Source: Bacillota bacterium
GTDB lineage: Bacteria; Bacillota_I; Bacilli_A; RF39; UBA660
NCBI GenBank assembly: GCA_003524085.1
Contig: DOEC01000021.1
Span: 70,477-134,476 of the forward strand
Direction: 5' to 3'
Length of the DNA: 64,000 nucleotides
The notes below the pieces were generated by a model. It was given only the letters and a program-made list of their open reading frames with translations, did not search any database and was not told the DNA's origin. Positions 823 through 26,930 of the stretch are shown piece after piece (position 1 is the stretch's first letter; every line of letters starts with the position of its first letter). The position numbers and the translations under genes are program-made.

Positions 823-1050
823 AACTGCCTCCGTTGTGTGTTAAATATCATACCACAATTTAAAGAAAAAAGATATAATTAATATTCACAAATATACTAA
901 AAGACAGATGTGTATTGATAAAATAAAATCAATATCATAAAAAACACCAACATAGTTTAGAAAAATAGATTAATCCTAGAAGTAATTAACAAACTATTGA
1001 TAAATAACATCATATTTGCTATAATTTAAGTATGGTAAAGGGTGTGTGAT

Positions 1051-1695
1051 ATGAAAAAGATAGTAATGTTAATAGTCATGATATTTAGTTTTAATATGAT
1101 TTTGAATGCTGAGTGTGATTATACTGAGAAAGTTAACTTAATTACTTTATCTAGTTATGTTGACTATAATTATGAATATATGAGCGATAATACTTTTAAA
1201 CTAACTTTTTATAATGTAACACCTGAAATGAAGTTAATTTATAATAATATAGAATATGCTCCAGCTAATGAAAGTGTGGAATTAAATTCACTAGAAGAAG
1301 GAAAAAGTATGAAAGTATCAATTAAGGGAAGTGATACTTCAGAATGTGCAATGCTAGATTTAAGAGTTATTAATTTGACTATTCCTTATGTTAACCCTTT
1401 TTATGGAAGTAATAGATGTATTGGACATGAAAGTTTGAATGTGTGTAGTAATAAGTTTTTACAATACAAGATAACTGAAAGTGAGTTTTTAAGACTTATT
1501 GATAAATCTGAAAATGATAACAAACCAGATGATGAAATTAATGATAAACCTGTAGTAAAAGAATTAACGTTTTTTGAAAAGGTAGTTGATTTTGCTAAAA
1601 AGGCATGGATACCAGTTCTTTTAGTAATTCTAACAAGTGGAATTACATTTGGTATTTTTAGTACAATTTATAGAAAAGTTAAACATGGAATATAA
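1051..1695 (+). CDS. Secreted or anchored protein (about 214 aa) with an N-terminal signal peptide and a C-terminal transmembrane anchor. Paralog of the next gene.
   Basis: ATG at 1051 sits behind an AAAGGG ribosome-binding site. The track start at 1042 is a GTG 9 nt upstream. Hydrophobic N-terminus MKKIVMLIVMIFSFNMILNA, C-terminal transmembrane stretch IPVLLVILTSGITFGIF followed by basic residues, and a shared NPFYG motif. Confidence 0.6.
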   Translation: MKKIVMLIVMIFSFNMILNAECDYTEKVNLITLSSYVDYNYEYMSDNTFKLTFYNVTPEMKLIYNNIEYAPANESVELNSLEEGKSMKVSIKGSDTSECAMLDLRVINLTIPYVNPFYGSNRCIGHESLNVCSNKFLQYKITESEFLRLIDKSENDNKPDDEINDKPVVKELTFFEKVVDFAKKAWIPVLLVILTSGITFGIFSTIYRKVKHGI

Positions 1696-1830
1696 AATAA
1701 AAAAATTTAAAATATAGGTAAAAACAATGCGTGAAATTGAATAGAATAGCGAAAAACTATTCTTTTTGTTATGTACAAACTAGAATAAATTTGTTATAAT
1801 TATTTTGTAATGATAGTGGAGGTAAGAGTT

Positions 1831-2463
1831 ATGAAAAAAATTTGTATGTTTTTAATGCTTACTATACTCATGAGTGTAAGTAAGTTAGAAGCAAGCTGTA
1901 ATGATTCACAGATACTTGCAAATGATATAGAATATTCAATATTTGAAAGTTATGACTATGATGATGTTAAAAGTGAAGTTGAGTTTTATGGCTTGAGTGA
2001 CGAGTTATATCTAGAAGTAACTAATGATTATAACGATGATGTGGACGTTTATACAAAAGATAATTTTACTGATGGAGTGTTAGTTATTCAAAGTAAAACT
2101 GTTACTGAGAAAATTAATTATTCAGCTAAAGTTTATACAACGGATACAAGTTGCTCTAATAAGATACTTAGGAATATAAATTTTAGTACAAATAAGTACA
2201 ATATATTTGTATCAAATGAAGTATGTAATGATAGGTATGATACAATAAAATATTGTAATCCATTTTATGATGTTAAAGATATGTCATTAACTGAGTTTAT
2301 TAAATTAGTAAATAAAGAAGCTGCTAAATTAGATGTACATTATACTTTTAAAGATTATGTAAAAATGTATTACTTGTACGTTTTAATACCATTTCTAGTG
2401 ATATCTATTGTTTATATAGTTAGAATTATTATATTTAAAAGGAGGAAGAAGCAATATGTATAA
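1831..2463 (+). CDS. Secreted or anchored protein with the same architecture as 1051..1695 (signal peptide plus C-terminal transmembrane anchor and KRRKK tail).
   Basis: Internal GGAGGT ribosome-binding site before the ATG at 1831. Hydrophobic N-terminus MKKICMFLMLTILMSV. CNPFYD motif as in the neighbour. Near-identical length. Confidence 0.6.
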   Translation: MKKICMFLMLTILMSVSKLEASCNDSQILANDIEYSIFESYDYDDVKSEVEFYGLSDELYLEVTNDYNDDVDVYTKDNFTDGVLVIQSKTVTEKINYSAKVYTTDTSCSNKILRNINFSTNKYNIFVSNEVCNDRYDTIKYCNPFYDVKDMSLTEFIKLVNKEAAKLDVHYTFKDYVKMYYLYVLIPFLVISIVYIVRIIIFKRRKKQYV

Positions 2464-5400
2464 GAAGTATTTAAAAATATTGTTATTAGCTGGTTTAACT
2501 TTAATTCCATTAAAGATTGATGCTCTTGCTGATACTCTTAAGATACAAGAAAATGGACATGTAAATCCTTTGTATGCTGACTATAATTGGTGGGATGGTA
2601 ATACTGAGGAAGGTTATTTAAGAGGAGAGTTGAAAAATGGTAAGTTAGTTTTAACAGCTGAAGCTAAAAAAGGTAAATACAATATTGAATGTAATCAAAA
2701 TAATTATCAATATTGGTATTATACTTGTCAGTCTACTTGTGGAATAGATATAACTAAACTTAGTAGTAGTTGGCAAAATCAAATATCTAGTTGTGGTAAA
2801 ACTACTAGATGGGGACTTACTAAATCGTTGAGTCAAAAAAATTGTAAAGAATCAGCTATAGGTACTAATAAAGCTTATTGTAACTTAAAATCTGGTGGAC
2901 AAATGAGATTTAATATATCAGAGTCTAACTTTATAAATCACGAAAGTCACTGTGGTAATGAAGCTGGATATATTGATCAAGTTAGATATGGCAAATGGGC
3001 TAAAGATTTAAATATGGATTCTACTTCTAATAAGAGTTATACTAAAGCACCTAATATAAAAAGATATTATTGTACATGGAGTTCTAGTACTAGTGGTACA
3101 ACTCAAACATCTAAAAAGAAACTAGTTCAAAATCAATATCAAACTTCTGATGGAGCAGCAGCTTACTGTGTAAACCCAGGTAGAATATTTAAGGCTCAAA
3201 ACTATAAATTAGCAGCAGAGTATGATGTTAGTAAGAAAGCTTGTACAAAGAGTAACTCTGATAAATCATGTGCACTTGCTGCAGCAGTAATGATTGGTAA
3301 TCAAGAATATAATGGAGACTATTTAACAATACTTACAGCATTAAGATTCTTAAGTGCGCATTATGGGGATAATGAAGGATGGTGGGAATCAGCTTCTTCT
3401 AAGAAATATCCTAATGCAAATATATATAAACATACAGTGGATGAAATAACAAATTATGGTTATGCAGGAGGGACAACTAAAACTAAAATTGGTGTTATAT
3501 ATGCAGACTCTACTTCTAGTACAGCTCTAGCTAATGCTATTTTGATATATAAAAAAGTAATGAGTGGATATGATATGTGGAGTCCTAGTGTAACTCATAA
3601 ACATTCTTCATATAATACTTATACTAAAACAGCAACTTTATCATTTGAAAGTAATTTCCCTACAGGTACAACAATTAGTAGTATAAAACTATCTAATGGA
3701 AAAGAAATACCTGCAGGAAATATAACATCTGCACCTTGTGAAAGTGATAATAGTAAGATGTGTATAACAGCGACTATACAATTAGAAGCAAATGAGTGTG
3801 TTAAAGTGAAAGCTGAAATATTTTATACAAATCCATATGATACAATATCTAAAATAGGATACTATAAAGCAATAGATAATCCTAGTAAATATCAAGATAT
3901 GTATGTATTTGATAGAAATGCTAAAGCAAGTGTAATGGTTACAAAAAAAACCGGAACAAACAACAATGCTTCAACTCAAGAATTTGATTTATGTGCACCT
4001 GATAATTCTTGTAGTATTGCTCCTGGCGGAAAATATATATGTAAAGATGGTAGTGAATGTACTAAAGAAAGATTTAGTGAAGAATGCGAAGAACCTACAG
4101 ATAATACATATTGTCCTAAACCTGAACTTGAAGAAAATATGCCAGATGACTGTGAAGACTCAACTACTGGTAGAATAGAAGATGCAACAATGTGTAATAT
4201 ACTTAACTCAGAAGATAAATACAAAGAAGAATATAGAAAGACTGAATATGAAAACGAATTTTGTAAAGTTTACTGTAGAGAAACATTAATATTTAGTTTT
4301 ATGGATAAAGAGACTGCTTATGCTGGACAAGCTTTTCAACATAGTGTAGGTAGTTATTATTCAGGTAAAGCTTACTTAAGTACAGTAATACTTTCTAGAA
4401 AACAATGTTCTAGTGAAGTTAATTATGATAACTGGTTAGCACAATATAAACAAGCAGATGCTAATGTATTAAGTACTTGGAATACATTAAAAGAATGGGA
4501 AGCATTTTATAATTTGAATGGTGGAACTTATACTGATTATGAAACCGATGATGGATGTAGTGCGGATCACTGTAGTTGTCCAGCTGGAGCAAAAATATAC
4601 ATGGAATGGAGTTACGCTTCATTTAATACGACTAATGCGAATGGATATACTAGTATGAGCGGCGAACATACAAAAACACGTTCTAGCAGCAGTTCTAGAT
4701 GTAGATCAGGTTCTCACTCTTGTAGATGTTGTCCATCAACTGATAAAGATGGAAAAACTACTTGGGGAAGTGAATGGTGTGAAACGTGTAGCTGTAGCTG
4801 TGCGAGTGATGCTGACGCTGGATATGTTAGTAGAAACTACTCTCGTGCATTAAATAATTATAAAAATGCACTAGAATATAGAGACAAACTATTATATCAA
4901 ATACAAGACTGTAACTTTATGAGCGATAATAATAACAATAACCGTGGTATAACTACAACGGCTGTATATACTAAAAATAAATATGGACCATATTATACAA
5001 CTAGCGCTAATGGAAACCATACAACTGGAGCTAATTTAAAAACTTACAAATCTATAGTTAATAATTACAAACCTGGAAATAAGATAGAAATAGACTATGA
5101 AGAAAACTATGGATATGGAGAAAATTATGATGTTGATATAGTTAATGAACAAACTAAAAACTATGCTGTTACAATTGGATATAGTGATAAAGAAGCTTGG
5201 AAAGACTATTGTAAGGGCGACTGTGATGGCTCTTTATACGACCTTAGTAGGACACCATATTTAACTAATGCAACCGATAATATTAATTATTGGACTTGTA
5301 CAGGAAGTGAAACTTCTGCAAGATGTACTAAGAATACATTAGTTATTCCTAAAAATAAACTAGCTAATATAGTAGTAGAAACTGAAACAGTACACTATCA

Positions 5401-6121
5401 AGATGCGGAATTTTATACTCAGGTGTTTACTGGTAAAACATCTACAAATAAGGATAATGTAGGATACTGGATAGAACTTGATAAACATATATATCCAGTA
5501 GGTGTTACTAGACTTACAGGTAACTATGGAATTAAGCTTGACTATAGTGACTTAGGTGAAAGTGGTAAACCTAATAATAGACATATGTCTGACGGTAATT
5601 ATACTTGTAGTTATGACGTAATAAACGAATTAACAATATATGACTGTAATGATGGATATCATGTATGTTATCCTTGTAGTGGAACTGAAGAAGAGTGTGA
5701 AGATTATAACTATGCAACAGGACTAGGTGTATACTTTAGAAATATAAATCTAAGTGATATATTTCCTAATTCAAAATTTAGTCCAAATTATTCTGATTTA
5801 AATAAAAATACTAGAAATATTGGGCAAAATTGGCTAACAACAAATGCTATACAAATTATTGACGAAATACAAAAATATGGAGAAAATGTATGGACTAAAA
5901 AAGAACCAATGTATAGTATTACATTAAGTCATGATGCAATGAAAACAATAAGAAATTATAATTCAAATAGTAATTATTTAGATTATTCACTTAACTGTGA
6001 TGAAAATTTAAGATGTACAAGTACTTTCTTAAATGAATTTAGAGCTAAGTATAGTAACTTATTTAGTAAGAATGTTAATATACCTAGCAATAACTTATAT
6101 TATTATAAAAGGAGTTGGTAG
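2456..6121 (+). CDS. Giant (1221 aa) secreted, Cys- and Ser/Thr/Asn/Tyr-rich surface protein, a putative adhesin or tip protein of the apparatus.
   Basis: AGGAGG ribosome-binding site. Signal peptide MYKKYLKILLLAGLTLIPLKIDALA. More than 60 Cys, including a dense cluster (CSCPAG, CRCCPS, CETCSCSCAS) around 4560-4810. No transmembrane anchor. Starts 8 nt before the upstream stop, indicating translational coupling. Confidence 0.65.
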   Translation: MYKKYLKILLLAGLTLIPLKIDALADTLKIQENGHVNPLYADYNWWDGNTEEGYLRGELKNGKLVLTAEAKKGKYNIECNQNNYQYWYYTCQSTCGIDITKLSSSWQNQISSCGKTTRWGLTKSLSQKNCKESAIGTNKAYCNLKSGGQMRFNISESNFINHESHCGNEAGYIDQVRYGKWAKDLNMDSTSNKSYTKAPNIKRYYCTWSSSTSGTTQTSKKKLVQNQYQTSDGAAAYCVNPGRIFKAQNYKLAAEYDVSKKACTKSNSDKSCALAAAVMIGNQEYNGDYLTILTALRFLSAHYGDNEGWWESASSKKYPNANIYKHTVDEITNYGYAGGTTKTKIGVIYADSTSSTALANAILIYKKVMSGYDMWSPSVTHKHSSYNTYTKTATLSFESNFPTGTTISSIKLSNGKEIPAGNITSAPCESDNSKMCITATIQLEANECVKVKAEIFYTNPYDTISKIGYYKAIDNPSKYQDMYVFDRNAKASVMVTKKTGTNNNASTQEFDLCAPDNSCSIAPGGKYICKDGSECTKERFSEECEEPTDNTYCPKPELEENMPDDCEDSTTGRIEDATMCNILNSEDKYKEEYRKTEYENEFCKVYCRETLIFSFMDKETAYAGQAFQHSVGSYYSGKAYLSTVILSRKQCSSEVNYDNWLAQYKQADANVLSTWNTLKEWEAFYNLNGGTYTDYETDDGCSADHCSCPAGAKIYMEWSYASFNTTNANGYTSMSGEHTKTRSSSSSRCRSGSHSCRCCPSTDKDGKTTWGSEWCETCSCSCASDADAGYVSRNYSRALNNYKNALEYRDKLLYQIQDCNFMSDNNNNNRGITTTAVYTKNKYGPYYTTSANGNHTTGANLKTYKSIVNNYKPGNKIEIDYEENYGYGENYDVDIVNEQTKNYAVTIGYSDKEAWKDYCKGDCDGSLYDLSRTPYLTNATDNINYWTCTGSETSARCTKNTLVIPKNKLANIVVETETVHYQDAEFYTQVFTGKTSTNKDNVGYWIELDKHIYPVGVTRLTGNYGIKLDYSDLGESGKPNNRHMSDGNYTCSYDVINELTIYDCNDGYHVCYPCSGTEEECEDYNYATGLGVYFRNINLSDIFPNSKFSPNYSDLNKNTRNIGQNWLTTNAIQIIDEIQKYGENVWTKKEPMYSITLSHDAMKTIRNYNSNSNYLDYSLNCDENLRCTSTFLNEFRAKYSNLFSKNVNIPSNNLYYYKRSW

Positions 6122-6124: not shown

Positions 6125-7831
6125 ATGAAAGAAACTTTTTGGTCTTATTTGTTTATAGTACTAGGGCTCCTTACTATAGCAATTATGATACTTGTACAAA
6201 ACTTAACAAGCACAAGTGAAGAAAACTATTACTTAACTAAAGAAGTTATGGAAGCTTCTATGATAGACAGTATTGACTATGGCTTATATAGAAAAACTGG
6301 CGAGATAAGAATGATAGAAAGTAAGTTTGTTGAAAACTTTACTAGAAGATTTGCTGAAAGTATAAATGATAGTAAAGAGTATACATTAGATTTCTATGAG
6401 ATATACGAAAACCCACCTAAAGCTACAGTAGTTGTAAAAACTGAAACAGGTAGTCAAACTATAACAAGTGACTCAACTGTAAATTTTGATATAAGAACAG
6501 TAATGAGTGGAATACTTGAAACTAAGTATAGTCAGAATGATAGTGTTTTAGCAGTTGACTTAACAACTGACAAAGGTACTGTCTTAGGTAAAACAAAATA
6601 TACTAGTTATGAAGGAAGAGTAATCTTTGAAGTAAATGCACCAGTACCTTATGTAGTAGAAGGGTCTACTATAACATGTGGTGACAACGGCGTTAATATT
6701 GAAACAAAAGATAATCAAGTTATTATAAGTAATGTTAGAAGAAATACAAGCTGTAATGCCAAACTTGCTGTTGGAAAAAGTGTAACACTCACAATGAATA
6801 GTGGAACAGGACAGGTAATAGGAGACAAAATAAAAGCAGCGGTGCCAGGTGGAAGCGTGTCATTTGAAGCACAAGCAACTGATGGGTATACTTTGGAAAA
6901 TCCAACAGTAATATGTTCTGGTGGTGCTACTGGAAGTAGAAGTGGTAACAAAATAGTAGTAAGTAACGTAAACACAGATCAGATATGTGATGTTACTTTA
7001 AAACGTGGAAAATACAAGGTTACTATTAATGTAATAAATGGTGGTACTACTATGACTAACCCTGTTGAAGTGGAATATGGTGAAACAGCACAAATCCCTA
7101 TATATGCTAATATTGGATATACAACAAAAGATATGAAAGTAAGTTGCTCAAAAGGCGCAACTGCTACTTTAAACAATAATATTATTAATTTAAGTAATGT
7201 AGTAGGTAGTCAAACTTGTACCGTTAGTATTCCTGAAATAACTGCTGATAATTATCCTTATTTTGTTGCTAAGCCAGGTGGAAGATATGACGTTACAATT
7301 GTTAATAAACAATCAGGTACATCTAATGGAATGAAAACAACCTATGCTTATAATGGATATGATACTGAATATATTATTGATGGTCAAAGAAGGTCTTTTT
7401 CATCAAATGTTAATGGTGGAAGTGAAACTTATAACGGAGTAACTATTAGTATACTTGCAACAAATATAGGTGATTCTCTTGCAGTTAACTACATAATTAA
7501 AAATAATAGTAATTCAACAAAAAGCTATTCTGTTTCTTCAACAGCTGATATATATTTAGTAGGAAATGATCACATAGTACTTTATAAAGATAGTAATAAT
7601 AGAATGTATACAGCAAGATATGGTAATTATTGGGTTGAATATTTATTTGATCCTACTGCTACGACAACGTGGATTGGACATTACGGAAGTAGAATGCAAA
7701 ATAGATATAATAACTCTTCAAATAATTCGAGTACTTATGGAGAAGATTCTGGTTTAGCATTTAGTTGGAGTGGAACAATAGGTGCAGGAGAAACAATAGT
7801 TAAAACTGTGAGATATGTTATTCATTATTAA
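6125..7831 (+). CDS. Membrane-anchored (N-terminal transmembrane segment) protein with three internal Ig-like repeats.
   Basis: N-terminal transmembrane segment FWSYLFIVLGLLTIAIMILV. Roughly 55-aa repeats share the pattern C..G....(I/V).SNV....C (TITCGDNG...ISNVRRNTSC, TVICSGGATG...VSNVNTDQIC, MKVSCSKGA...LSNVVGSQTC). Hairpin plus T-run terminator at 7850-7888. Confidence 0.6.
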   Translation: MKETFWSYLFIVLGLLTIAIMILVQNLTSTSEENYYLTKEVMEASMIDSIDYGLYRKTGEIRMIESKFVENFTRRFAESINDSKEYTLDFYEIYENPPKATVVVKTETGSQTITSDSTVNFDIRTVMSGILETKYSQNDSVLAVDLTTDKGTVLGKTKYTSYEGRVIFEVNAPVPYVVEGSTITCGDNGVNIETKDNQVIISNVRRNTSCNAKLAVGKSVTLTMNSGTGQVIGDKIKAAVPGGSVSFEAQATDGYTLENPTVICSGGATGSRSGNKIVVSNVNTDQICDVTLKRGKYKVTINVINGGTTMTNPVEVEYGETAQIPIYANIGYTTKDMKVSCSKGATATLNNNIINLSNVVGSQTCTVSIPEITADNYPYFVAKPGGRYDVTIVNKQSGTSNGMKTTYAYNGYDTEYIIDGQRRSFSSNVNGGSETYNGVTISILATNIGDSLAVNYIIKNNSNSTKSYSVSSTADIYLVGNDHIVLYKDSNNRMYTARYGNYWVEYLFDPTATTTWIGHYGSRMQNRYNNSSNNSSTYGEDSGLAFSWSGTIGAGETIVKTVRYVIHY

Positions 7832-7911: not shown

Positions 7912-8712
7912 ATGAATAAGTTAATAATTTCATTAAAAAGATTTTTTAGTAATAAAAATACTGTTACTATTATTTGTGTGTTTGCAGCAGTTTTGGTGCT
8001 ATATTTTGGTTATAACTGGAGAATTAAACAGCAAACTAAACCTATTAAGGTTCCATATGCTAAGGTTGAAATACAACCTCGTACACAAATTACAGAAGAT
8101 ATGATAGGGTATTTAGAGATTCCTGGTAGCATGGTTAGTGATAATACTATTAAGTTTGCTAATGAAATAATAGGTAAGTATGCCAACTATAATACAGTTA
8201 TTCCTAAAGGAAGCGTATTTTATAGTAGTACTATTGTAACTTGGGAGCAAATGCCAGATTCAGCATGGGCTAATATTCCTAATGGATATACTGTAGTTAG
8301 TTTAAGTGTTAATACTGAAACTACATATGGTAACTCAATATTTCCAGGAAACTATATTGACTTATATTATAGTACACATGATGAAACTGGAAAGTTACTT
8401 TTAGGTAAACTTATTAAGAGTATTGAAGTACTTGCTGTAAAAGATGCAAGTGGAAACCATGTGTTTGAAAACAGTGGGGAATTAAAAGCACCTAACAGTT
8501 TAATATTTGCTGTACCAGAAAGCATGCATTTACTTCTTAGAAAAGCAAGTTACTTAAATGGTGAAATTATACCTGTACCAAGAAATAAAGAGTATAGTTT
8601 AAATCCTGAGGCAACTGAAGTAAGTAGTGAATATTTACAAAATTATATACTTAGTCAAACTGTTATATTGCCAGAACAAGCAAATGACAGTCAAATTTCA
8701 ACTATTGAGTAA
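7912..8712 (+). CDS. CpaB/RcpC-like Flp pilus assembly protein (N-terminal transmembrane segment plus SAF-like domain).
   Basis: 266 aa. Transmembrane stretch TVTIICVFAAVLVLYFGY followed by KVPYAKVEIQPRTQITEDMIGYLEIPG, typical of CpaB. Sits immediately upstream of the TadA/B/C genes. Confidence 0.55.
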   Translation: MNKLIISLKRFFSNKNTVTIICVFAAVLVLYFGYNWRIKQQTKPIKVPYAKVEIQPRTQITEDMIGYLEIPGSMVSDNTIKFANEIIGKYANYNTVIPKGSVFYSSTIVTWEQMPDSAWANIPNGYTVVSLSVNTETTYGNSIFPGNYIDLYYSTHDETGKLLLGKLIKSIEVLAVKDASGNHVFENSGELKAPNSLIFAVPESMHLLLRKASYLNGEIIPVPRNKEYSLNPEATEVSSEYLQNYILSQTVILPEQANDSQISTIE

Positions 8713-15039: not shown

Positions 15040-15144
15040 AGCAATTGAGTAAATAAAGCAAAGTGTGTAATTAATTAAGTACAAAATATTGACTTTTTGT
15101 ACTTAATATGGTATAATTATATTCAATTAAGGGGGTAAATTTTT

Positions 15145-15980: not shown

Positions 15981-16337
15981 ATGAATTATTTATTTTTATT
16001 AGGAATGTGTAGCGATTTGAGTGTTGTGTGGACAATATTCGGATATATTATTTGGGGAATTAAGGTAGTAGTGCCTTTATTATTAATTATATCTGGTATG
16101 ATTACAATGGCTCATGCAGTTATGGAAAAAGATGAGAAGAAAATTAAAGATGCACAAAAATTATTGGTACAAAAGATAATCGCAGCTGTTATCGTTTATT
16201 TAGTAATAGCTTTAACTGGTGTTATAGTTAGCTTAGTTGCTAGTGGTGATTGGCAAAGTTGTGCAAATTGTGCATTCCATCCATTTGATAAATCAGCTGG
16301 TTGCGGAATAACTAAAACACCAATAGAAAATAACTAG
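15981..16337 (+). CDS. Small two-transmembrane-helix membrane protein, a VirB2/TrbC-like (pilin-like) candidate.
   Basis: 118 aa. Two hydrophobic helices separated by a Lys-rich loop (AHAVMEKDEKKIKDAQKLL), C-terminal Cys motif CANCAF. Architecture and length match T4SS VirB2/TrbC family. Terminator at 16349-16372. Confidence 0.4.
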   Translation: MNYLFLLGMCSDLSVVWTIFGYIIWGIKVVVPLLLIISGMITMAHAVMEKDEKKIKDAQKLLVQKIIAAVIVYLVIALTGVIVSLVASGDWQSCANCAFHPFDKSAGCGITKTPIENN

Positions 16338-17828: not shown

Positions 17829-17840
17829 GAAGGAGAATAT

Positions 17841-19898
17841 ATGAAGAAAGTATTATTAAATGGGTTTAGCTCACTTGGATTTGCAATACCAATTTTGTAC
17901 GAAATATTTGTATTAATAGATTCTTGGATTTATGCTTTAGCAGCATTTGCAATGCAAGCTTTCTTTGCTATTGCAAAATTACAGCTTTCAACAGAAAATA
18001 TAAGTGATATATCGTATATAACTTCTAGAATAATGTTATTATGTGGAGTGTATGCTTTATTTAAATTATCTATAACTTTAATAAATTATATAATTGATCC
18101 TAATAAAATAGAAAAGTCAGGAAAAACTGGAATAAAAGTTGTTCAAAAAATTGTAATTGCTGTTGTTTTACTAGCTTCAAGTAAATTTATTTTTGACGAG
18201 TTATTTGCATTTCAAAATGCCGTAATAGATAGTAATGTAATTCCTAAAATTATTTATGGAGATGCTAACTATAATGATGAAAATGACGGGGATATGGCTT
18301 TAACAAGTAAGAAGTTTGTTAATAGTGTATTCGTTACATTATTTGAGAATAATACAGCAGAAACTTCACCATCTGAAGCTGCAAAAACGGCAAAAAATAG
18401 AGTTTTACAAGGTGAATCAATATTACTATTGTCTCCTTATGCGTATGATGCTGGGTTTCATTACATTCCATTTGTAACTGGAATTGTTGGAATTTTACTT
18501 TGCTATTACTTCATTGCATTTGCATTTGAACTTGGAACTAGGATAATAAAATTATTTGCTTTACAGGTTATTTCACCTATACCAATTATTATGAGTATTG
18601 ATCCTTCTAGCAAGAGTGATAAGCTAGTTAATTTTGCTAAATTATATGGTGGCATTTATCTAAATGTTTTTGTAAGAATTTTAACTGTTTATGTTGCATT
18701 TGTGGCATTAAATTTAGTCACTTCAGTATTTGATGGAATAAACTGGTTAGCTAAAATTCTATTAATTATCGGAGTATTCCATGCTGCTAAAGAACTTCCT
18801 AAATTAATTGAAGACGCTTTAGGAATGAAGTTAGGGTTAGGTGATGCAGGGAAAGGATTTGGAGCAGTACTTATGGGAACTATTGCTGGAGGAGCTGGAC
18901 TTGTAGGTGGAGCTATTGCTGGTGGAATATCAGGCGGAGTCGGTGGTGCGTTAGGCGGAGCATTTACTGGTCTTACTACAGGTGTTACAAAAGGTGCTGC
19001 TGCTAAAAATGCTGTTGGTGTGATTGGTGCAAGTACCGGTGCAATAAAAGGTGGCTTTGGAATGGGTGCTAGAGTTGCTGGTGCTGGTGGACTTGGAGCA
19101 TTTATGGTAGGAGGAGTTGAAAACTTCTTTGGTGGTAAAGGAAGAGATGCTGCTACACTAGGCGATTTTGATAAACAAATTTCAAATACTGATAAGGCTA
19201 TAGAAAATGTTAGAAAAGGTATTAATTCTACTCAACAAAAAATTACAAATTCAAATGCTAACTTGAATGTTCAAAATCAAGCTGAAAATTTAAGAAAAAA
19301 CGTTGATAGTTTATTTGCTAGAAAATCTGGTTATGGAACTATGGACGAATTTATAAATAATAATAAAGATTATGTAGCTGCTAGAGAACTACTTGCAAAT
19401 GCACATCCTAATACACCTCAAGAAGATATAGACTACTTAAAACAAAATATGGAAAATGCAAGATTAAATGCTGCTAATCAATATAACCAAGCTAGAGACG
19501 ATTTCTATCAAAGTCATTTTGATGGAACTAAGGTTGACAACGACTTAGCGAGTGCAATTGATGACTACAATAATTATTGTATTGATAATGGTCTTGGTGC
19601 TGAAAGATTAATTAAAGGATACGAGAGTAATGTTGGTTTAACTAATGATGCGAAAGCATCTATAGAGACATTAAATGAAGAAGCTAGTAAAGCTATTCAA
19701 AGTGAAATTGCTCAATATCAACAACAAATTAATGCTGAAGAACTTAAAATTGAAAAGTATGAGCAGGATAAGAAAAATATTGAAGCACAAAAGAAAAATT
19801 ATGTTGAGAAAGATGCTGGATATCAAAGAAGAAATAAACGTGAAGAAAAACCGCAATATAGGTCTCGTAATGTAAACAACAATAACAATACTAATTAA
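17841..19898 (+). CDS. VirB6-like (TcpH/ConG-type) polytopic membrane protein with a Gly-rich segment and a Q/N/K-rich coiled-coil tail.
   Basis: 685 aa. At least 6 transmembrane helices in the first 330 aa. GGAGLVGGAIAGGISGGVGG Gly-zipper region. C-terminal coiled coil. Confidence 0.5.
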   Translation: MKKVLLNGFSSLGFAIPILYEIFVLIDSWIYALAAFAMQAFFAIAKLQLSTENISDISYITSRIMLLCGVYALFKLSITLINYIIDPNKIEKSGKTGIKVVQKIVIAVVLLASSKFIFDELFAFQNAVIDSNVIPKIIYGDANYNDENDGDMALTSKKFVNSVFVTLFENNTAETSPSEAAKTAKNRVLQGESILLLSPYAYDAGFHYIPFVTGIVGILLCYYFIAFAFELGTRIIKLFALQVISPIPIIMSIDPSSKSDKLVNFAKLYGGIYLNVFVRILTVYVAFVALNLVTSVFDGINWLAKILLIIGVFHAAKELPKLIEDALGMKLGLGDAGKGFGAVLMGTIAGGAGLVGGAIAGGISGGVGGALGGAFTGLTTGVTKGAAAKNAVGVIGASTGAIKGGFGMGARVAGAGGLGAFMVGGVENFFGGKGRDAATLGDFDKQISNTDKAIENVRKGINSTQQKITNSNANLNVQNQAENLRKNVDSLFARKSGYGTMDEFINNNKDYVAARELLANAHPNTPQEDIDYLKQNMENARLNAANQYNQARDDFYQSHFDGTKVDNDLASAIDDYNNYCIDNGLGAERLIKGYESNVGLTNDAKASIETLNEEASKAIQSEIAQYQQQINAEELKIEKYEQDKKNIEAQKKNYVEKDAGYQRRNKREEKPQYRSRNVNNNNNTN

Positions 19899-19920: not shown

Positions 19921-20238
19921 ATGAATAATATGTATATTATACCTGCTAATAGTAAAAATGGTAAGCTTATATTTAACATATTTAGAGGTATTGATTTAGT
20001 GGTATTCTTGTGTGGTGTGGGAGTAAGTTTACTATTATTTGTAGCAATACAAGCTACTACAATGACTACAACAATAATAAAGATACTACCAATTTGTGTA
20101 TGTACTTTCTTGGTAGTACCTATACCATTTTATCATAACGTAATGTGTTTTATAAAAGAATTATACTTGTTTTTAGCAAATAGAAGAGTATATTATTGGA
20201 AAGGATGGTGTGTTAGAAGTGAGTACAGTGAGAAGTAA
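19921..20238 (+). CDS. VirB3-like small membrane protein (2 transmembrane helices).
   Basis: 105 aa. Two hydrophobic helices. Sits directly upstream of, and overlaps, the VirB4 N-terminal ORF, as in Gram-positive T4SS (TcpE, PrgI position). Confidence 0.4.
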   Translation: MNNMYIIPANSKNGKLIFNIFRGIDLVVFLCGVGVSLLLFVAIQATTMTTTIIKILPICVCTFLVVPIPFYHNVMCFIKELYLFLANRRVYYWKGWCVRSEYSEK

Positions 20239-20770
20239 AAATACAGAAGATTGGCTACCTATTAGGTCTATACTAAATGGTGCTATACAACTTGATGATG
20301 GAATGCAAGTAACAGGTGTTAAAGTACAACCTAAGAATATATTTATTATGGATAATGATAGTCAAAGAAACGTTATATATAATTTAAGAAATCTATATAA
20401 TAGCATTGATTATGAATTTAGTATTATTGTAGCAGATAGACCAGTTGATATTAATGTTTATTTAAGTCAATTACAGCTTTTATACAATAACGTACAAACT
20501 CCAGTTTTGAAGAAACTTGTTATGCAAGACATCAATAAGGCAAATCTATTTATGAGTAAGGAAGTAGGTGTAGCTGATACAGAATATTACTTACTATTCA
20601 GGGAGAGAAGACCTGAGATAATGCAAAAAAGAATACAAAACTTAATAAGTGGTTTTGCAACATGTGGGTTAGTTGCTAGTCAAACTAGTAATGATGATTT
20701 AAGAGTATTACTTGATGGATTTTTAAATGATGGAAGTAGAACTGAATTTGGGACGGTGATGGGTTCATGA
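20210..20770 (+). CDS. VirB4-family ATPase, N-terminal domain as a separate ORF.
   Basis: 186 aa. GTG start at 20210 (or 20219) overlaps the upstream gene by 29 nt. Ends with TGA overlapping the ATG of the next ORF (gttcATGAac). Confidence 0.5.
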   Translation: MLEVSTVRSKNTEDWLPIRSILNGAIQLDDGMQVTGVKVQPKNIFIMDNDSQRNVIYNLRNLYNSIDYEFSIIVADRPVDINVYLSQLQLLYNNVQTPVLKKLVMQDINKANLFMSKEVGVADTEYYLLFRERRPEIMQKRIQNLISGFATCGLVASQTSNDDLRVLLDGFLNDGSRTEFGTVMGS

Positions 20771-22542: not shown

Positions 22543-22556
22543 TTAAGAGGTATATT

Positions 22557-25196
22557 ATGGATGATAAGGAGAAGAACTTAATTAATAGTGAAAATTTAAA
22601 TTCACAAAATAATGTGGGTTCTTTTCCTTTACATAATAATACATTTGTGAATAGTACTGATAAATCTGATATTAATAATAGAATAAATAATACTAAAGGT
22701 AGAAATTTACAAAATAATATGGAAAGTAGAGAAACTAGTAATACAAGTTTAGGAGCAGATTCTTTAGAAAAAAAAGATAAACTAGATAAAGGCTCTTTAG
22801 GAAAAAATGCTTTAAATAGTGCGGGGAATGCTCTTTTAAGTAAGGCAAGTGAAGATGATGGAATAGTTGGAGATACTGCAAAAGGAATACGTGCTGTAAA
22901 CAAAGGTGTAAAGGCAACTAAAACTAGTGTAAAGGCCATTAAGGCATTAATAACTCTTTTAAGTGGGCCAGTTGGATGGGTTCTTGGTATATTTGCTGGG
23001 GTAATGTTACTAATTTTCTTAATCGTAATTGTATATCATACAATAATAAGCTCGTTAAGTATGAAGTTTAATTTAACTGGAAAAGATAGTTACGAAGTAT
23101 TTAAAGAGAAGTATGAAGAAGCAATGTCTAGAGGAGATATAGATAGTTTGTATGAAAGCGCTGATGGAATAGACTGTGGAGAGAGAAGCTTTTTTACTAA
23201 AATTAAAAATTTCTTTGGAGTATATCAGATAGAAAATCCTACTGAATTATGTTTATATGTTAAAAAGACACTTGAAGAAAAAGAAACATTACCTGGTATA
23301 ACAACACTTAGTCCTGGATATTTTTTAAGTAGTTTATATTATGCGTATGATACTCAAAATGTTAAAGAAAATGGTGAACTATTTATTAAAGTACCTGATG
23401 CAAGTGGTTTAGAAAGTGATGATAAAAACTACGTTGCACCAACTGACTTAGATGCAATTAGTACACTTTTTGTTACAAAGATTTATGAAAAAAAAGATTT
23501 AGATAAATTAATAGATGAGTATATTTTAAAGTATGACTTAAAAAGTTATGGGCTTACTCCTTATAAGTTAGTAATCGATTATGATGAAGAGGGCAATGAA
23601 ATAGGAAGACACTGTGATGCTTTTAGTGCACCTATTAACTATCAAACAAGTGAAAGTAAGTTTAATTTATATTTAAGATATGGGGAAAATATAAGTGAAA
23701 GCTATCAATATGATAACAATATTATTAGAACGTATGAATTAACAAGTAGTGAATGCTATGACAATATAGGTGTAGCTAAACCTAGTCTAGCTAAGTATGA
23801 TGTTAAACTTGATTTAACAAGCGAGGAAGAAAAGATACCTAGTATAGATGGATATACTTATGAAGATGGATTTATTTATGATACATATCCTAGGTATAAG
23901 GCTGAATATAATTTAGATGGTGTTAAACCAGCATTTGATTATAAAGTGGCTAGGGATATTGAAAATATTATGGATAGCAGAGTTAGTTCTAGACAAGACT
24001 ATATAAACTATTTACTAGGATACCCTAACACAGTTAAAACAAATTTAGCTCTTTATTCAGGAAATTGTACGTATACAGTTGGCAACAGAGATGTAAGTAA
24101 TTTAAAAGTAAGACTTATTCACAAAAAAAATAGTGCACTGCCTGATGTAGAAGTGAATGCTGCTGTTCCTAATCAAGAATTAATTGATTTTGAAAAGTAT
24201 GTACTAGGAGTAGTGTATGCTGAAAATGGTGGGGCACCTGATGAAGCAATGAAAGCACAAGCAATCGCGGCTAGAACTTATGCTTTTAACCGTGGTACTA
24301 TAAAAGAAGAAAATGGTGAGGTTGTCCTTGAAATATCAAGTAGTACTTGGGATCAAACATATTGTGATCCTGATAAAGGATGTGACATATGTACTTCAGC
24401 ACTAGACCAAAGTGTGCAAACTGTAATGACAAAAGGTACAGTACCAGAAGGGGCTAGTTGTACTCATTGGAAAGGTCCTTTAGAAAACGATTCTCGTATT
24501 AGAAAAGCTGTTAAAGCAGTATCTGGAATAATACTTACTGACACTTCAGGAAATCCTGCTGGAGTAGGATACACTAGTACTACTCAAAATAGTTGGAATT
24601 CTTTGGCTAATCAAGGAAGTGATTATGTAGAATTAATAAGAAGCTCTTATGGCGGAGAATACATTTTAAGTAATCCATCATGTAGCTTTGCAAGTGGCGA
24701 CTGGGATAAATGGAGACAAAGTAGTAGTGAATGGGGAAGTATTATGTTATCAACTAAAAATATGTCTAGTGTAGGATGTTTTATAACCGCGCATGCTAAA
24801 GCTATTGCTAAAAGTGGTGCTCAAGTAAAAGTAGCTAACTTTAACCCAGGAACATTTGTAAATACAATTAAAGCTAATGGATGTTTAGACGGAAATAACT
24901 TGGTAAGTGCTTGTGCTTTAAAATCAGTTTTAGTTAATGATTATGAACGAAAGAGTAGTGCTTTAAGTGGGTCGCTTGAAAATAAAGCAAATGTAATCGC
25001 CGGTTATATTAATAATGGATATGAAGTAATTCTTAGAGTTAAATCACCAGACCCTAGACAACACTGGGTACTTGTAACTGGAGTAAGCGGAAGTACTATA
25101 TATATGTCTGATACAGCAAGTGATGCTAATATAGTAGTACCTTTCTATAATGCTAATGAAGTAGTTTATATGATTGCTTATAGATTTGATATTTAG
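22557..25196 (+). CDS. VirB1-type bifunctional cell-wall hydrolase: membrane anchor, SpoIID/LytB-like domain and a C-terminal papain-like (CHAP/NlpC-P60/C39-like) cysteine peptidase.
   Basis: 879 aa. Transmembrane segment GWVLGIFAGVMLLIFLIVIV. SpoIID signature VVYAENGGAPDEAMKAQAIAARTYAFNRG. C-terminal Cys (SSVGCFITAHAK) and His (RQHWVLVTG) arranged as a papain-like dyad. Confidence 0.6.
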   Translation: MDDKEKNLINSENLNSQNNVGSFPLHNNTFVNSTDKSDINNRINNTKGRNLQNNMESRETSNTSLGADSLEKKDKLDKGSLGKNALNSAGNALLSKASEDDGIVGDTAKGIRAVNKGVKATKTSVKAIKALITLLSGPVGWVLGIFAGVMLLIFLIVIVYHTIISSLSMKFNLTGKDSYEVFKEKYEEAMSRGDIDSLYESADGIDCGERSFFTKIKNFFGVYQIENPTELCLYVKKTLEEKETLPGITTLSPGYFLSSLYYAYDTQNVKENGELFIKVPDASGLESDDKNYVAPTDLDAISTLFVTKIYEKKDLDKLIDEYILKYDLKSYGLTPYKLVIDYDEEGNEIGRHCDAFSAPINYQTSESKFNLYLRYGENISESYQYDNNIIRTYELTSSECYDNIGVAKPSLAKYDVKLDLTSEEEKIPSIDGYTYEDGFIYDTYPRYKAEYNLDGVKPAFDYKVARDIENIMDSRVSSRQDYINYLLGYPNTVKTNLALYSGNCTYTVGNRDVSNLKVRLIHKKNSALPDVEVNAAVPNQELIDFEKYVLGVVYAENGGAPDEAMKAQAIAARTYAFNRGTIKEENGEVVLEISSSTWDQTYCDPDKGCDICTSALDQSVQTVMTKGTVPEGASCTHWKGPLENDSRIRKAVKAVSGIILTDTSGNPAGVGYTSTTQNSWNSLANQGSDYVELIRSSYGGEYILSNPSCSFASGDWDKWRQSSSEWGSIMLSTKNMSSVGCFITAHAKAIAKSGAQVKVANFNPGTFVNTIKANGCLDGNNLVSACALKSVLVNDYERKSSALSGSLENKANVIAGYINNGYEVILRVKSPDPRQHWVLVTGVSGSTIYMSDTASDANIVVPFYNANEVVYMIAYRFDI

Positions 25197-25204
25197 GAGA
25201 AGAT

Positions 25205-25975
25205 ATGGAAAAAAAGAATAATAAGTTTGAAGTTACAATTATATTTATAGTTATTGTATTTTCTATTATTATGTATGGATTATATTTAGTAGTAAACGAG
25301 TATTATAAAAAGTATGCGTTTACACTAATTACTAGTCCATTGACAATATTAGAATGCAAGAAATGGGACTGCACAGATAAGACTAGTGAAGTAAGTAAGT
25401 ATAATAATAAAGAATACAACACTAATATTGATGGAAAAGATATTGGAAAAAATACTATGTATTATGATTCATTTCAAAAGAGGTTTTATATATTTGATTA
25501 TAAAGATAATAGTATTAAATATAATAATAGTTTCTATATGTATGAAGGTAGTATTAGTGGAATACTCTTAGATAAAAACGAAGTTAGTACTCTTGAATTA
25601 GAGACTATTAAGTCTAAATTAAAATTAAAATTTAGTTTAAATCAAGTAACATATAGTGAGAAAGTAATGATGGACTTTGACGCGGACAGTAATATTGAAG
25701 AAGTGTATTCTGTTATTGGTGGGGCTCTTAATTATTACTTTAGTTATCTTGTATATAATAAGGAAGAAAAGTATTATATTTTATACAAAAGTGAAGAAAA
25801 TGATATAACTAAATTTAGTGCAGGAACTATTAGTAATGCGTTAGATATATTTAATGATGGTAAAAAGGAATTTATATACCACATAAGTTATTATGACGAA
25901 ATAGGGGAATGCAATGTTCTTTATAGAATTAAAGGTAAAAAATTTGTAAATGTTAATGAGTGTAACGTTAAATAG
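25205..25975 (+). CDS. Bitopic membrane protein (N-terminal transmembrane segment plus about 220-aa extracytoplasmic domain), a possible VirB8/TcpC-like component.
   Basis: Transmembrane segment VTIIFIVIVFSIIMYGLYLVV. Follows the hydrolase by 8 nt. Assignment is from topology and position only. Confidence 0.3.
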   Translation: MEKKNNKFEVTIIFIVIVFSIIMYGLYLVVNEYYKKYAFTLITSPLTILECKKWDCTDKTSEVSKYNNKEYNTNIDGKDIGKNTMYYDSFQKRFYIFDYKDNSIKYNNSFYMYEGSISGILLDKNEVSTLELETIKSKLKLKFSLNQVTYSEKVMMDFDADSNIEEVYSVIGGALNYYFSYLVYNKEEKYYILYKSEENDITKFSAGTISNALDIFNDGKKEFIYHISYYDEIGECNVLYRIKGKKFVNVNECNVK

Positions 25976-26084
25976 TTACACTTTTTTTAGTTTGCTAACT
26001 GGCAAAATTGCAATAGACTAAATACTAATGATTTTCTCTTTCTATTTTGTTTTAAACGTGTTACAATATTAATGGGGAAATGAT

Positions 26085-26930
26085 ATGAAAAGTTACTTTA
26101 ATAATGAAGAATATATATATATTAAATCGTTTTTAAGAACAAACCCTAGTGAAGCTTTGATTAGAACAGAAGAATATATAAAGAAATATCCAAATGACTA
26201 TATTGCAGGTGTGTTCTATTCTAAAGTTTTAAAAGTATTGGGTAGTTTTAGTGAGGCTTTATATGTTTTAGGTAACATAGAAGAAAGGTATACTTCCAAT
26301 AAAAAGTTATTTAATGATTTTGCTAAGTATAATATTATAGAAGAGAAAGTACTTTATAATAAATTAAGATGTCTAAGTTATTTAGAAGATTTTGATAAAG
26401 TAGAAGAACTATTAAATGAAAACAGAAAATATTTAATAAATCCTAAATTTGGGTATTTTAGTAATTTAGTTAAATATTCTAAGATGGAAAACATTAACTT
26501 TAATGCTAGCTATAGATTAGAACAATTATTTAATTATAGTGACGAAGAGTTTTTAAGTCATATATCAAAACATATGTATAGTAGAGTGGAAGACTATGAT
26601 GTAATTAGTACATTTAATGAAGATTTTCCTTTTGATAAAGTTTTTTATGAAGTAAAGAAGAAAATACTCTTTTGTAAAGCGTATTATTTTGGAACATATG
26701 AAGATGTGTATATATTTAAGTATGATAAATGTGGCGTTACTAATGGTAAAATAAGTGATTATTTTTTGGTTATTACTTTTCATAATACTAATAAGTATAT
26801 TTCAATGTACCCATGTAACTCAAGTAGTAACTTTAATTATGTTGACTTAAATTATTTGAAAATTCCAAGTACAAGTAATGTCAAAAGACTTAGTCAAATA
26901 GATAAGTTTAATATGAAATATAAAAAATAA
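26085..26930 (+). CDS. Hypothetical cytoplasmic protein (281 aa), possibly helical-repeat.
   Basis: Intact ORF. No transmembrane segment or recognisable motif. Confidence 0.4.
   Translation: MKSYFNNEEYIYIKSFLRTNPSEALIRTEEYIKKYPNDYIAGVFYSKVLKVLGSFSEALYVLGNIEERYTSNKKLFNDFAKYNIIEEKVLYNKLRCLSYLEDFDKVEELLNENRKYLINPKFGYFSNLVKYSKMENINFNASYRLEQLFNYSDEEFLSHISKHMYSRVEDYDVISTFNEDFPFDKVFYEVKKKILFCKAYYFGTYEDVYIFKYDKCGVTNGKISDYFLVITFHNTNKYISMYPCNSSSNFNYVDLNYLKIPSTSNVKRLSQIDKFNMKYKK

Follow-up and report, generated by a model that had tools for sequence, protein, structure and literature searches.

A chromosomal block of gut Bacilli joins a Tad-like module to type IV secretion genes in the gene order of plasmid conjugation operons

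In the present work, we analysed a 64,000-nucleotide (nt) stretch of contig DOEC01000021.1 (assembly GCA_003524085.1, positions 70,477 to 134,476; hereafter the window), a DNA of ~28% G+C in which a block of genes between positions 1051 and 26930 encodes parts of a Tad-like pilus together with parts of a type IV secretion system (T4SS). All genes from 1051 to 34389 lie on the plus strand. A preliminary description of this DNA had placed both sets of parts in one co-directional block, and this held: its open reading frames (ORFs) were all recovered on the plus strand at the same coordinates, with the first starting at ATG 1051 rather than at GTG 1042, and the CpaB, CpaF-like ATPase, VirB4 and VirB6 assignments are well supported. 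Our reading, to which we assign a probability of roughly 0.65, is that the block represents a domesticated, chromosomal and vertically inherited mating-pair formation (MPF) apparatus of the class known from the plasmids pLS20, pXO2/pAW63 and pBMB67. Genes are named here by their start positions. The Tad-like module and the large gene ahead of it comprise the following features (aa, amino acids):

2456..6121, plus strand: secreted protein of 1221 aa with 48 cysteines and a signal peptide
6125..7831, plus strand: DUF5411 N-terminal domain (aa 1-135, with a pilin-like N-terminal helix) and a species-specific beta-rich extension
7912..8712, plus strand: CpaB/RcpC-like bitopic protein
8745..9842, plus strand: CpaF/VirB11-family secretion ATPase, 365 aa
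9859..10758, plus strand: TadB-like platform protein with a GspF/PilC-fold cytoplasmic domain
10755..11555, plus strand: TadC-like candidate for a second platform protein, its gene overlapping 9859 by 4 nt
11735..11986, plus strand: 83-aa pilin-like protein with its own promoter-like site
12006..12467, plus strand: 153-aa minor-pilin-like protein, judged by N-terminal motif and helix
12479..13462, plus strand: 327-aa cytoplasmic protein, possibly of TadZ/CpaE type, with a degenerate Walker A motif

In searches with Pfam and NCBIfam, 13 of the 22 ORFs of the block had no match even at E values up to 10. Within the Tad-like module, the DUF5411 domain of 6125 matched PF17424 at 9.8e-54 (the counterpart in Clostridium sp. 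CAG:628 is just 135 aa long), and 7912 matched the RcpC/CpaB family PF16976 with 31.1 bits, above the gathering score of 28.8, as well as TIGR03177 (3e-12). The ATPase matched T2SSE (E 5e-27), its best relative in the PDB being CpaF (8.8e-21), ahead of FlaI and of VirB11 (5e-14), and it scored far below every NCBIfam equivalog cut-off. The topology of 9859 and 10755 fits TadB and TadC, respectively. Neither matched the T2SSF family of Pfam, nor did any member of the TadB-like family, which in an exhaustive search of representatives formed one tight cluster and a few distant ones; an hhalign comparison of the TadB-like with the TadC-like profile was not significant. The TadC-like call for 10755 is a weak one, drawn from topology and an hhalign match (E 1.4e-4) to the counterpart on plasmid pBT9727.

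Three proteins of this module may be pilin-like, a weak assignment from the N-terminal sequence that 11735, 12006 and the DUF5411 domain of 6125 have in common, namely M-K/R-E-A/T-x-G/W followed by a hydrophobic helix. The N-terminus of 11735 reads 'MKEATG-ELNMTVITVV...', to be compared with 'VKDYTG-ELVLVGLL' at a distant stand-alone locus, and it is without the canonical Flp motif G/XXXXEY ('TG-ELNMTV', no EY). No family in the Pfam library matched 12006. Among the ORFs of the block there is no polytopic aspartic-peptidase candidate for a prepilin peptidase, which may be encoded elsewhere in the genome. As for 12479, it carries a degenerate Walker A sequence ('TEGAGATT') within a conserved 'G-x-K-x-x-T-x-x-AGATT', the Walker A lysines being lost. 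Its weak matches (the AdeR receiver at 0.03, McdA at 1.2, and by hhalign the AAA_31 protein of pBMB67 at 0.0037 in the Walker A region) make a TadZ/CpaE-type protein possible. Comparisons of 12479 with the PDB returned nothing significant, and against an Escherichia coli MinD sequence hhalign aligned the Walker B strand alone, without significance.

The T4SS module follows on the same strand (TM, transmembrane):

15981..16337, plus strand: VirB2-like membrane protein of 118 aa and two helices; the gene has a promoter-like site of its own and a terminator-like hairpin
16410..17828, plus strand: 472-aa protein, a secreted ectodomain fused to a C-terminal VirB2-like hairpin
17841..19898, plus strand: extended VirB6-like polytopic protein with multiple TM segments, a Gly-rich linker and a coiled-coil tail
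19921..20238, plus strand: 105-aa VirB3-like protein with two TM segments, directly before VirB4
20210..20770, plus strand: VirB4 N-terminal domain as a separate ORF, 186 aa
20767..22542, plus strand: VirB4 ATPase, 591 aa, with an ATGA overlap with the preceding ORF
22557..25196, plus strand: 879-aa membrane-anchored wall hydrolase in the VirB1 role, with a SpoIID-type domain and a probable C-terminal Cys/His peptidase
25205..25975, plus strand: 256-aa bitopic protein with FG-GAP-like propeller blades

Here, VirB4 is the most firmly identified component: 20210 covers positions 101-277 of NF045975 (1.6e-14) and 20767 covers positions 294-891 (7e-106), the latter also matching the VirB4 structure 4ag5 of the PDB at 1e-57, and a match to the TraC-like family PF26593 was recorded for homologues of 20210. 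The split of VirB4 into two ORFs was kept in every locus examined and is ancestral to the group; a pseudogene or a frameshift could be ruled out, as the split is conserved across loci and also found in plasmids. The VirB6-like protein 17841 aligned with positions 65-373 of the 377-position profile NF045890 (pLS20_p028; E 3e-9), with a score of 36 bits, below the equivalog cut-off of 150, which indicates homology rather than equivalence to pLS20_p028. In the hydrolase, we found PF08486 (SpoIID) at 1.4e-11 over aa 542-661, a TM segment at 127-171 and a weak Peptidase_C39-like match (0.048) at the C-terminus; profile searches with the N-terminal ectodomain (aa 170-540) gave no family match.

Other parts of the channel are less certain. 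The C-terminal 100 aa of 16410 align in register with 15981, which has two TM segments, both forming two-helix hairpins, and the most frequent Pfam match was PF18895 (T4SS_pilin), seen in 7 of 11 homologues with a best E of 0.0031 and always below the gathering score; the VirB2-like calls for 15981 and the C-terminus of 16410 are accordingly weak and should be taken as putative. Equally weak is the VirB3-like call for 19921, which had no family match of its own in Pfam or NCBIfam and was named for its size, its two TM segments and its position. The bitopic protein 25205 had been put forward as a T4SS component. Its structure model, with a predicted local distance difference test (pLDDT) score of 79, resembles the FG-GAP propeller blades of integrin alpha and not VirB8. 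Profiles built from 4-11 sequences (TadB-, TadC-, TadZ-, VirB2- and VirB6-like) yielded nothing useful against PDB sequences. Taken together, the component calls of the preliminary description stood for CpaB, the ATPase, VirB4, VirB6 and the SpoIID hydrolase, and proved weak for TadC, the pilin-like proteins, TadZ, VirB2 and VirB3.

Promoter-like and terminator-like signals were overall no more frequent than expected by chance. Those at two small genes are as would be expected for abundantly made subunits: 11735 has a promoter-like site at 11674-11702 (11/12 sigma-70-like match), preceded by a terminator-like hairpin at 11554-11570, and 15981 has one at 15928-15956 (again 11/12) and a hairpin at 16350-16367. 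An Rfam search of positions 1-32000 detected no regulatory RNA.

The block is widespread and conserved. The exact product of the ORF from ATG 1051 occurs in 145 blocks of a metagenome collection, and the exact ATPase and VirB4 sequences in ~1000 contigs each, the longest exceeding 1 Mb, with contig names that indicate the human gut. The exact ATPase, VirB4 and 1221-aa sequences correspond to HBP13073, HBP13076 and HBP13089 ('MAG TPA: Firmicutes bacterium'), and relatives of the block carry the labels 'uncultured Bacilli bacterium', 'Tenericutes bacterium' and 'Clostridium sp. CAG:628'. A scan of the genome collection returned two loci only. We refer to some of these loci by number: L008 is that of CAG:628, L007 is from the same or a very close species, and L021 is plasmid pBT9727. 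The whole array, with identical gene lengths, recurs in CAG:628 and in further metagenome lineages (L011, L013), and no core ORF is disrupted in any of the loci examined. Even in L015, a lineage with 26-45% identity, CpaB-, TadB-, TadC- and 12479-like genes (45% identity for 12479) are directly followed by a VirB6-like gene.

Relative to CAG:628, identity amounts to 97% for VirB4, 91% for the ATPase and 82-84% for the platform proteins, and to 46% for the VirB6-like protein, 36% for 16410 and 51% for the hydrolase. Ratios of nonsynonymous to synonymous divergence (dN/dS; Nei-Gojobori) were 0.04-0.06 for VirB4, 0.08 for the ATPase, 0.10 for the TadB-like, 0.13 for the TadC-like and 0.10 for the VirB3-like protein, with 0.07 for spoVS as a comparison, and they reached 0.37 for the VirB6-like protein, 0.40 for the hydrolase and 0.51 for 16410. 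The ATPases and platform proteins are thus under strong purifying selection (0.04-0.13). As a separate observation, the dS of the VirB4 C-domain (20767-22542) against L008 is 0.45, below its neighbours (~1.0-1.4), and that of the ATPase is also low (0.66), which could result from codon-level constraint or from recombination between species.

Within the species, the picture is one of near identity with a single divergent cassette. For the contigs L009 and L010, identity over the alignable portions of the block is 97-100% in protein and 98.3-99.1% in DNA, with three genes as exceptions: the VirB2-like gene (61% identity, in strains that elsewhere agree at 99-100%), 16410 (34%), the most variable gene of the block, and the VirB6-like gene (54%). 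The divergent DNA stretch, as seen against L009, L010 and L007, spans 13467-19745, with flanking DNA at 98.6-99.1% identity, and no DNA similarity was left at 16462-17594 (the ectodomain of 16410) or at 19217-19745 (the VirB6 tail). The cassette of VirB2-like protein, ectodomain and VirB6 is hence allelic and hypervariable within one species.

The block sits between housekeeping genes. The 10 kb upstream, as they appear in six independent contigs, hold aminoacyl-tRNA synthetase-domain, F420_ligase-domain, MGDG_synth and DUF3419 genes, and PrsW, SpoVS and UvrA are encoded downstream; spoVS also lies downstream in CAG:628, which places the block at the same chromosomal position in a second species. 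The preliminary description had taken the flank for conserved chromosome and had proposed to look for mobility genes upstream and for the same position in relatives, and on each of these points it was borne out, there being no mobility gene in the 10 kb upstream. Its statement that the window holds no relaxase, coupling protein, integrase, tRNA or flanking repeats agrees with our searches as well. With plasmid VirD4 as the query (from pBT9727 and pBMB67), tblastn returned P-loop cross-matches to VirB4 only in the 64-kb window. Apart from the two ATPases of the machine, Walker A proteins are limited there to a DUF4143 ATPase, to UvrA, to an ABC protein and to two GTPases, with no other candidate for a coupling protein. 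A MobP3 relaxase homologue was found nowhere in the 64 kb, and the domain searches, which covered the block and the 10 kb ahead of it, showed no relaxase domain either. Likewise, the window contains no tRNA, no integrase and no convincing att-like flanking repeats. An integrative and conjugative element (ICE) was therefore rejected, as integrase, att sites, tRNA, relaxase and coupling protein are all missing from the window and, the flanks being housekeeping genes, this is not an ordinary ICE.

The closest parallels of the block are found on plasmids. In contrast to other Gram-positive T4SS studied, the pLS20 plasmids encode a VirB11 homologue, gene 37, which is followed by the membrane-protein genes 38 and 39 in the same operon as VirD4, extended VirB6, VirB4, VirB8 and VirB1, genes 38-41 being listed as 'unknown' (PMC8557374). 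VirB11, VirB4 and VirD4 homologues were described in 2005 for pAW63, pXO2 and pBT9727 (PMC1196294; pBT9727 annotation). The premise that Gram-positive conjugative T4SS normally lack a VirB11-family ATPase, on which the preliminary description had built, is not supported in view of both reports. In pLS20, for which pBatNRS213 served as the annotated family example, the genes are (PMC8557374):

gene 34: Tie adhesin, 768 aa
gene 36: 126 aa, N-terminal TM
gene 37: putative VirB11, 402 aa
gene 38: 268 aa, N- and C-terminal TMs
gene 39: 243 aa
gene 40: 120 aa
gene 41: 47 aa
gene 45: 76 aa, two TMs
gene 46: 439 aa, C-terminal TM
gene 47: 361 aa
gene 48: VirD4
gene 49: extended VirB6
gene 50: 103 aa, two TMs
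gene 51: 192 aa
gene 52: VirB4, 631 aa
gene 53: VirB8
gene 54: VirB1
gene 55: 269 aa, N-terminal TM
genes 56-58: Aux1, Aux2 and relaxase

Window ORFs 2456-25975 parallel genes 34-55 in order, size and topology, including a pair of polytopic membrane proteins with a 4-nt gene overlap after the VirB11/CpaF ATPase. By position, 2456 matches Tie (and a 1426-aa protein of pBT9727), 12006 matches gene 40 (and the DUF4320 protein of other plasmids), 16410 gene 46, 19921 gene 50 and 25205 gene 55. The window is without gene 47, VirD4 (48), an NTF2-type VirB8 (53), Aux1, Aux2 and the relaxase, adds CpaB-like and TadZ-like genes, and has a SpoIID domain in its hydrolase where the pLS20 family has a lysozyme domain; besides, it is chromosomal and the pLS20 family plasmid-borne. 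Most correspondences other than that of the ATPase are positional and not significant in sequence. The ATPase is 32-34% identical to Bacillus and Enterococcus plasmid ATPases among the best plasmid matches listed, the top-ranked of which belong to Gram-positive plasmids and are annotated 'CpaF/VirB11 family', and hhalign aligned 17841 with the extended VirB6 of pBatNRS213 over a short stretch (2.5e-4).

The nearest plasmid VirB4 genes are those of Bacillus thuringiensis plasmids. On pBMB67, the T4SS part encodes a MobP3 relaxase, VirD4, a VirB2-like small protein, TrbL/VirB6, PrgI/VirB3, a 227-aa ORF (32% identical to 20210, 2.7e-18) and VirB4 (1e-76 to 20767). About 9 kb on, on the same strand, its Tad-like part encodes DUF5411 (8.9e-6, three genes ahead of the ATPase), a SAF/RcpC protein that shares 30% identity with 7912 over the full length (7.5e-29), AAA_31, the T2SSE ATPase (1e-34), two membrane proteins (one, of 244 aa, matching 10755 at 1.2e-4 by tblastn), a small protein and DUF4320. 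The two modules of pBMB67 thus lie ~9 kb apart and in the order opposite to that of the window.

The co-directional array of pBT9727 opens with the surface protein of 1426 aa, which is followed by small ORFs, by a T2SSE ATPase with 31% identity to 8745 (9e-38) and by membrane proteins of 277 and 248 aa, which matched 9859 and 10755 with hhalign E values of 0.006 and 1.4e-4. It continues with small ORFs, one of them for a TrbC/VirB2 pilin, and with a protein of 664 aa, VirD4, a pLS20_p028 VirB6 and further small ORFs, and ends with a 104-aa DUF5592 protein, a 222-aa ORF, VirB4 (7.6e-28), a lysozyme/C40 hydrolase and a 202-aa protein. Its DUF5592 protein, like 19921, sits before the split VirB4, a split common to the window, pBMB67, pBT9727 and pLS20. 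Directly upstream of the ATPase of pBT9727 lies a 127-aa ORF with a weak DUF5411 match (0.0017; BLASTP 0.002 to 6125). The pilin of pBT9727 (L021, 16221-16502, minus strand) scores above the Pfam thresholds of two families, PF04956 (3e-13) and PF18895 (1e-6), and an hhalign comparison of the VirB2-like profile with it was not significant.

Altogether, the window is collinear with the pLS20, pXO2/pAW63/pBT9727 and pBMB67 operons. In the comparison with Bacillus cereus-group plasmids, identity is 21-32% for those of the ATPase, CpaB-like and VirB4 proteins for which there is a match, and the pXO2/pAW63/pBT9727 and pBMB67 plasmids carry VirD4 and a MOBP relaxase, both of which the window is without. 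Plasmid VirD4 sits between the equivalents of genes 46/47 and VirB6, a slot that is closed in every relative of the window examined. We conclude that this plasmid class natively combines a Tad-like filament sub-module with a monoderm T4SS channel. The former consists of a CpaF/'VirB11-like' ATPase, two GspF-fold platform proteins, small pilin-like proteins and DUF5411, in some members also CpaB and a CpaE/TadZ-type protein, with a large surface protein just upstream; the latter of VirB2-like proteins, extended VirB6, VirB3, split VirB4 and a wall hydrolase. In the lineage of the window, VirD4, the relaxase with its auxiliaries and a recognisable VirB8 are missing (from the window and the 10 kb upstream) and the rest is intact. 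The block is hence best seen as a pair of sub-modules that cooperate and are carried jointly in the plasmid class, and not as a unique chimera. The architecture was already known from plasmids; new are the chromosomal site, the missing transfer genes, the CpaB- and TadZ-like genes and the hypervariable cassette.

What carries the domesticated-MPF reading is the homology of ATPase, VirB6 and CpaB, the platform fold, the collinearity, the flanks, the purifying selection and the hypervariability of the cassette. Several points weigh against it. Seven genes (2456, 11735, 12006, 15981, 16410, 19921, 25205) were matched to the plasmids by position, size and topology or by weak hhalign scores (E 1e-4 to 2e-2). 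VirB4 scores higher with a Mycoplasma-ICE model (7e-106) than with the CD1110 model (7e-53) and is <30% identical to the Bacillus plasmid proteins, and the plasmid families are therefore architectural relatives rather than close kin. No VirB8-like component was found in the block, hhalign of 25205 and 22557 against the VirB8-like protein of pBatNRS213 yielding nothing. A coupling protein and a relaxase could be encoded elsewhere in the genome, of which 64 kb and the 10 kb upstream were seen. Finally, the function of the block is inferred throughout, from sequence.

Further genes of the region lie outside the two modules:

1051..1695, plus strand: 214-aa protein with signal peptide and C-terminal membrane anchor, by topology
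1810..2463, plus strand: 217-aa anchored protein of the same topology
13516..15867, plus strand: strain-variable insert encoding a serpin with a membrane anchor (13516-15039) and, after it, a Cu_amine_oxidN1 protein (15145-15867)
26085..26930, plus strand: 281-aa cytoplasmic protein outside the conserved core

Neither 1051 nor 1810 had a family match in Pfam or NCBIfam. They had been called paralogues, and are marginally so (BLASTP E 0.005); the loci of other species begin downstream of 1051 and so do not cover its conservation. The 1221-aa protein 2456 had no match in Pfam, NCBIfam, PADLOC or the PDB, is 38% identical to its CAG:628 counterpart over the C-terminal third and has no detectable sequence homology to Tie or to the 1426-aa protein of pBT9727. 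On a 598-kb metagenome contig (L001, 11406-15126), this gene was called as two ORFs of 685 and 400 aa, reflecting either a natural disruption or an assembly error. The serpin (1e-34) and the Cu_amine_oxidN1 protein (7e-9, both Pfam), which the preliminary description had listed as interleaved, lie between the modules in a stretch where G+C falls to ~23%. They do not, however, belong to the core: the slot is empty in L007 and CAG:628, holds a different 229-aa gene with Cu_amine_oxidN1 in L009 and a 94-aa ORF in L011. In CAG:628, no counterpart of 26085 lies between the orthologues of 25205 and 28747, and in L011 the gene is displaced.

Downstream of the block, we made some additional observations. 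The AAA_14/DUF4143 ATPase gene at 30220-31455 matches the PADLOC candidate defence family PDC-S01 (6e-103), and a 56%-identical copy is found elsewhere in L011, between the 25205 and 26085 orthologues. Window positions 26967-27493 are short by ~200 bp relative to L007 and L009, a loss that cuts a 236-aa Zn-ribbon (UPF0547) gene to a 127-aa ORF (27110-27493) and whose junction shows a 19-bp overlap of BLAST segments (26967-26985). Two copies of a 43-nt direct repeat, 84% identical, occupy 30095-30181 in the intergenic region between spoVS and 30220, and Lys-rich repeats in 21-nt phase lie at 29463-29724, in the 3' part of gene 28747.

Among the alternatives to a domesticated apparatus, the one that survives best, although we consider it unlikely, is that the block still serves conjugation as a machine acting in trans, with coupling protein and relaxase supplied from another part of the genome or by mobilisable elements; it would then mediate Hfr-like chromosomal transfer or act as a helper for integrative mobilisable elements. 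The nearest architectural relatives are indeed plasmids that were reported to be conjugative or annotated as putatively so, and the best VirB4 match is to the Mycoplasma ICE family; Mycoplasma ICEs drive chromosomal transfer without a classical relaxase, which would count in favour of this alternative. Against it speak the 64 kb without a VirD4 or MobP3 homologue or another candidate P-loop protein, and the closed VirD4 slot before VirB6 in all relatives examined.

Rather improbable is a chance neighbourhood of two independent machines, a DUF5411-type Tad-like pilus locus and a separate T4SS remnant. Three stand-alone loci with distant members of the TadB-like family (L017-L019, one of them in NCBI assembly GCA_028686295.1) do contain the Tad-like module on its own, that is a T2SSE ATPase, two TadB/C-like proteins, pilin-like ORFs of 52-60 aa, an 833-1305-aa protein and a DUF5411-like ORF, with no T4SS genes in the available sequence, and in the window the modules are separated by the variable insertion site and by promoter-like and terminator-like signals of their own. 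Yet their adjacency is maintained down to L015 and recurs within single plasmid conjugation operons, and purifying selection is equally strong in both.

The view that this is a chimeric Tad/T4SS nanomachine of a kind not described before, devoted to protein secretion, adhesion or holdfast formation and unrelated to conjugation, we regard as very unlikely. It would account for the presence of both part sets without transfer genes and for the large Cys-rich and FG-GAP-like surface proteins of the block. Nevertheless, the same combination and gene order has been published for the pLS20, pXO2/pAW63/pBT9727 and pBMB67 plasmids, contrary to the earlier statement that no such architecture had been described, and the architecture was therefore inherited from conjugation systems and not newly assembled. 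A role in protein secretion, adhesion or holdfast, which the preliminary description had favoured, is possible for the block; its nearest relatives are DNA-transfer machines. Lastly, a decaying remnant of an integrated plasmid or ICE without present function, to which the loss of VirD4, relaxase and recognisable VirB8 and the two-ORF gene of L001 might point, is strongly disfavoured by intact core ORFs in every locus, by dN/dS of 0.04-0.13 for motor and platform genes at dS 0.5-1.4 and by a position conserved across species.

If the apparatus was indeed domesticated, its parts might work together as follows. The CpaF-like ATPase and the two GspF-fold proteins would assemble a short filament of 11735, with 12006 and 6125 as putative minor pilins, and the Cys-rich 1221-aa protein would be a candidate adhesin that makes the cell contact. 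VirB4, VirB3, VirB6 and the hydrolase would form a conduit through the cell wall that bears VirB2-like subunits. With no coupling protein or relaxase of its own, the machine could not mobilise itself and would therefore be expected to serve a host function that needs contact and a conduit. By analogy with ComB, with Ced/Ups and with the Patescibacteria T4SS, the likeliest roles may be coupling-protein-independent import or exchange of DNA, or surface attachment. The ComB system of Helicobacter pylori we take to be a case comparable to such coupling-protein-independent DNA uptake.

Canonical Tad/Flp systems (Caulobacter Cpa, Aggregatibacter Tad, Bifidobacterium Tad) share with the block the CpaF-like ATPase and CpaB/RcpC, and probably also a pair of single-domain platform proteins of GspF fold and small pilins. 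They differ from it in that the block has no match to T2SSF, is without the G/XXXXEY motif of Flp pilins, encodes no prepilin peptidase and has a short ATPase (365 aa). A genomic-context study had drawn attention to CpaF, PilC/GspF and DUF5411 in gut Clostridia as the parts of an uncharacterised system (PMC9523054). A further parallel is offered by the chromosomal T4SS of the monoderm Patescibacteria (Saccharibacteria), which have an MPF-FATA-related VirB4 together with VirB6, VirB3 and VirB1-like proteins and variable arrays of VirB2-like (PF18895) pilins, mostly without a relaxase, and which, like type IV pili, matter for the lifestyle of these bacteria (PMC12102498, PMC12857230). They belong to another phylum, a VirD4-like gene was reported in the Saccharibacteria locus and a Tad-like module in the same operon is not mentioned (PMC12857230); the parallels are functional and architectural. 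In Sulfolobales, contact by a type-IV filament (Ups pili) and a VirB4/VirB6/VirB2-like DNA conduit without relaxase or coupling protein (Ced) come together (PMC9905601, PMC11823120), these being archaeal and encoded at two separate loci; the analogy is one of function only. Our literature searches found no description of the present locus.

For the plasmids themselves, our comparison corrects a statement of recent reviews, in that some Gram-positive T4SS do have a VirB11/CpaF-family ATPase, and pBT9727 has a TrbC/VirB2-family pilin. It also leads to a testable idea, namely that pLS20 genes 36-41 (Bacillus subtilis), annotated 'unknown', would constitute a Tad-like filament module made up of the ATPase, two GspF-fold proteins and small pilin-like proteins. 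If domestication holds true, the block would represent a second, independent case of a monoderm conjugation machine kept for a host function, outside the Patescibacteria, in an organism that occurs in ~1000 gut-metagenome contigs.

More tentatively, both lines may be joined: a very common lineage of uncultured low-GC gut Bacilli may have domesticated a plasmid-type conjugation apparatus as a vertically inherited organelle for contact and coupling-protein-independent exchange, probably of DNA, and the 'VirB11-like' ATPase of the pLS20/pXO2 class may be the motor of a Tad-like filament sub-machine. Were this combined proposal to be true, the block would be the Bacillota counterpart of the Patescibacteria T4SS and of the archaeal Ups and Ced systems, and its swappable cassette of VirB2-like protein, ectodomain and VirB6 would set partner specificity or evade phages or host immunity. 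It would further mean that the pLS20/pXO2 class builds a pilus, against the usual view of Gram-positive conjugation.

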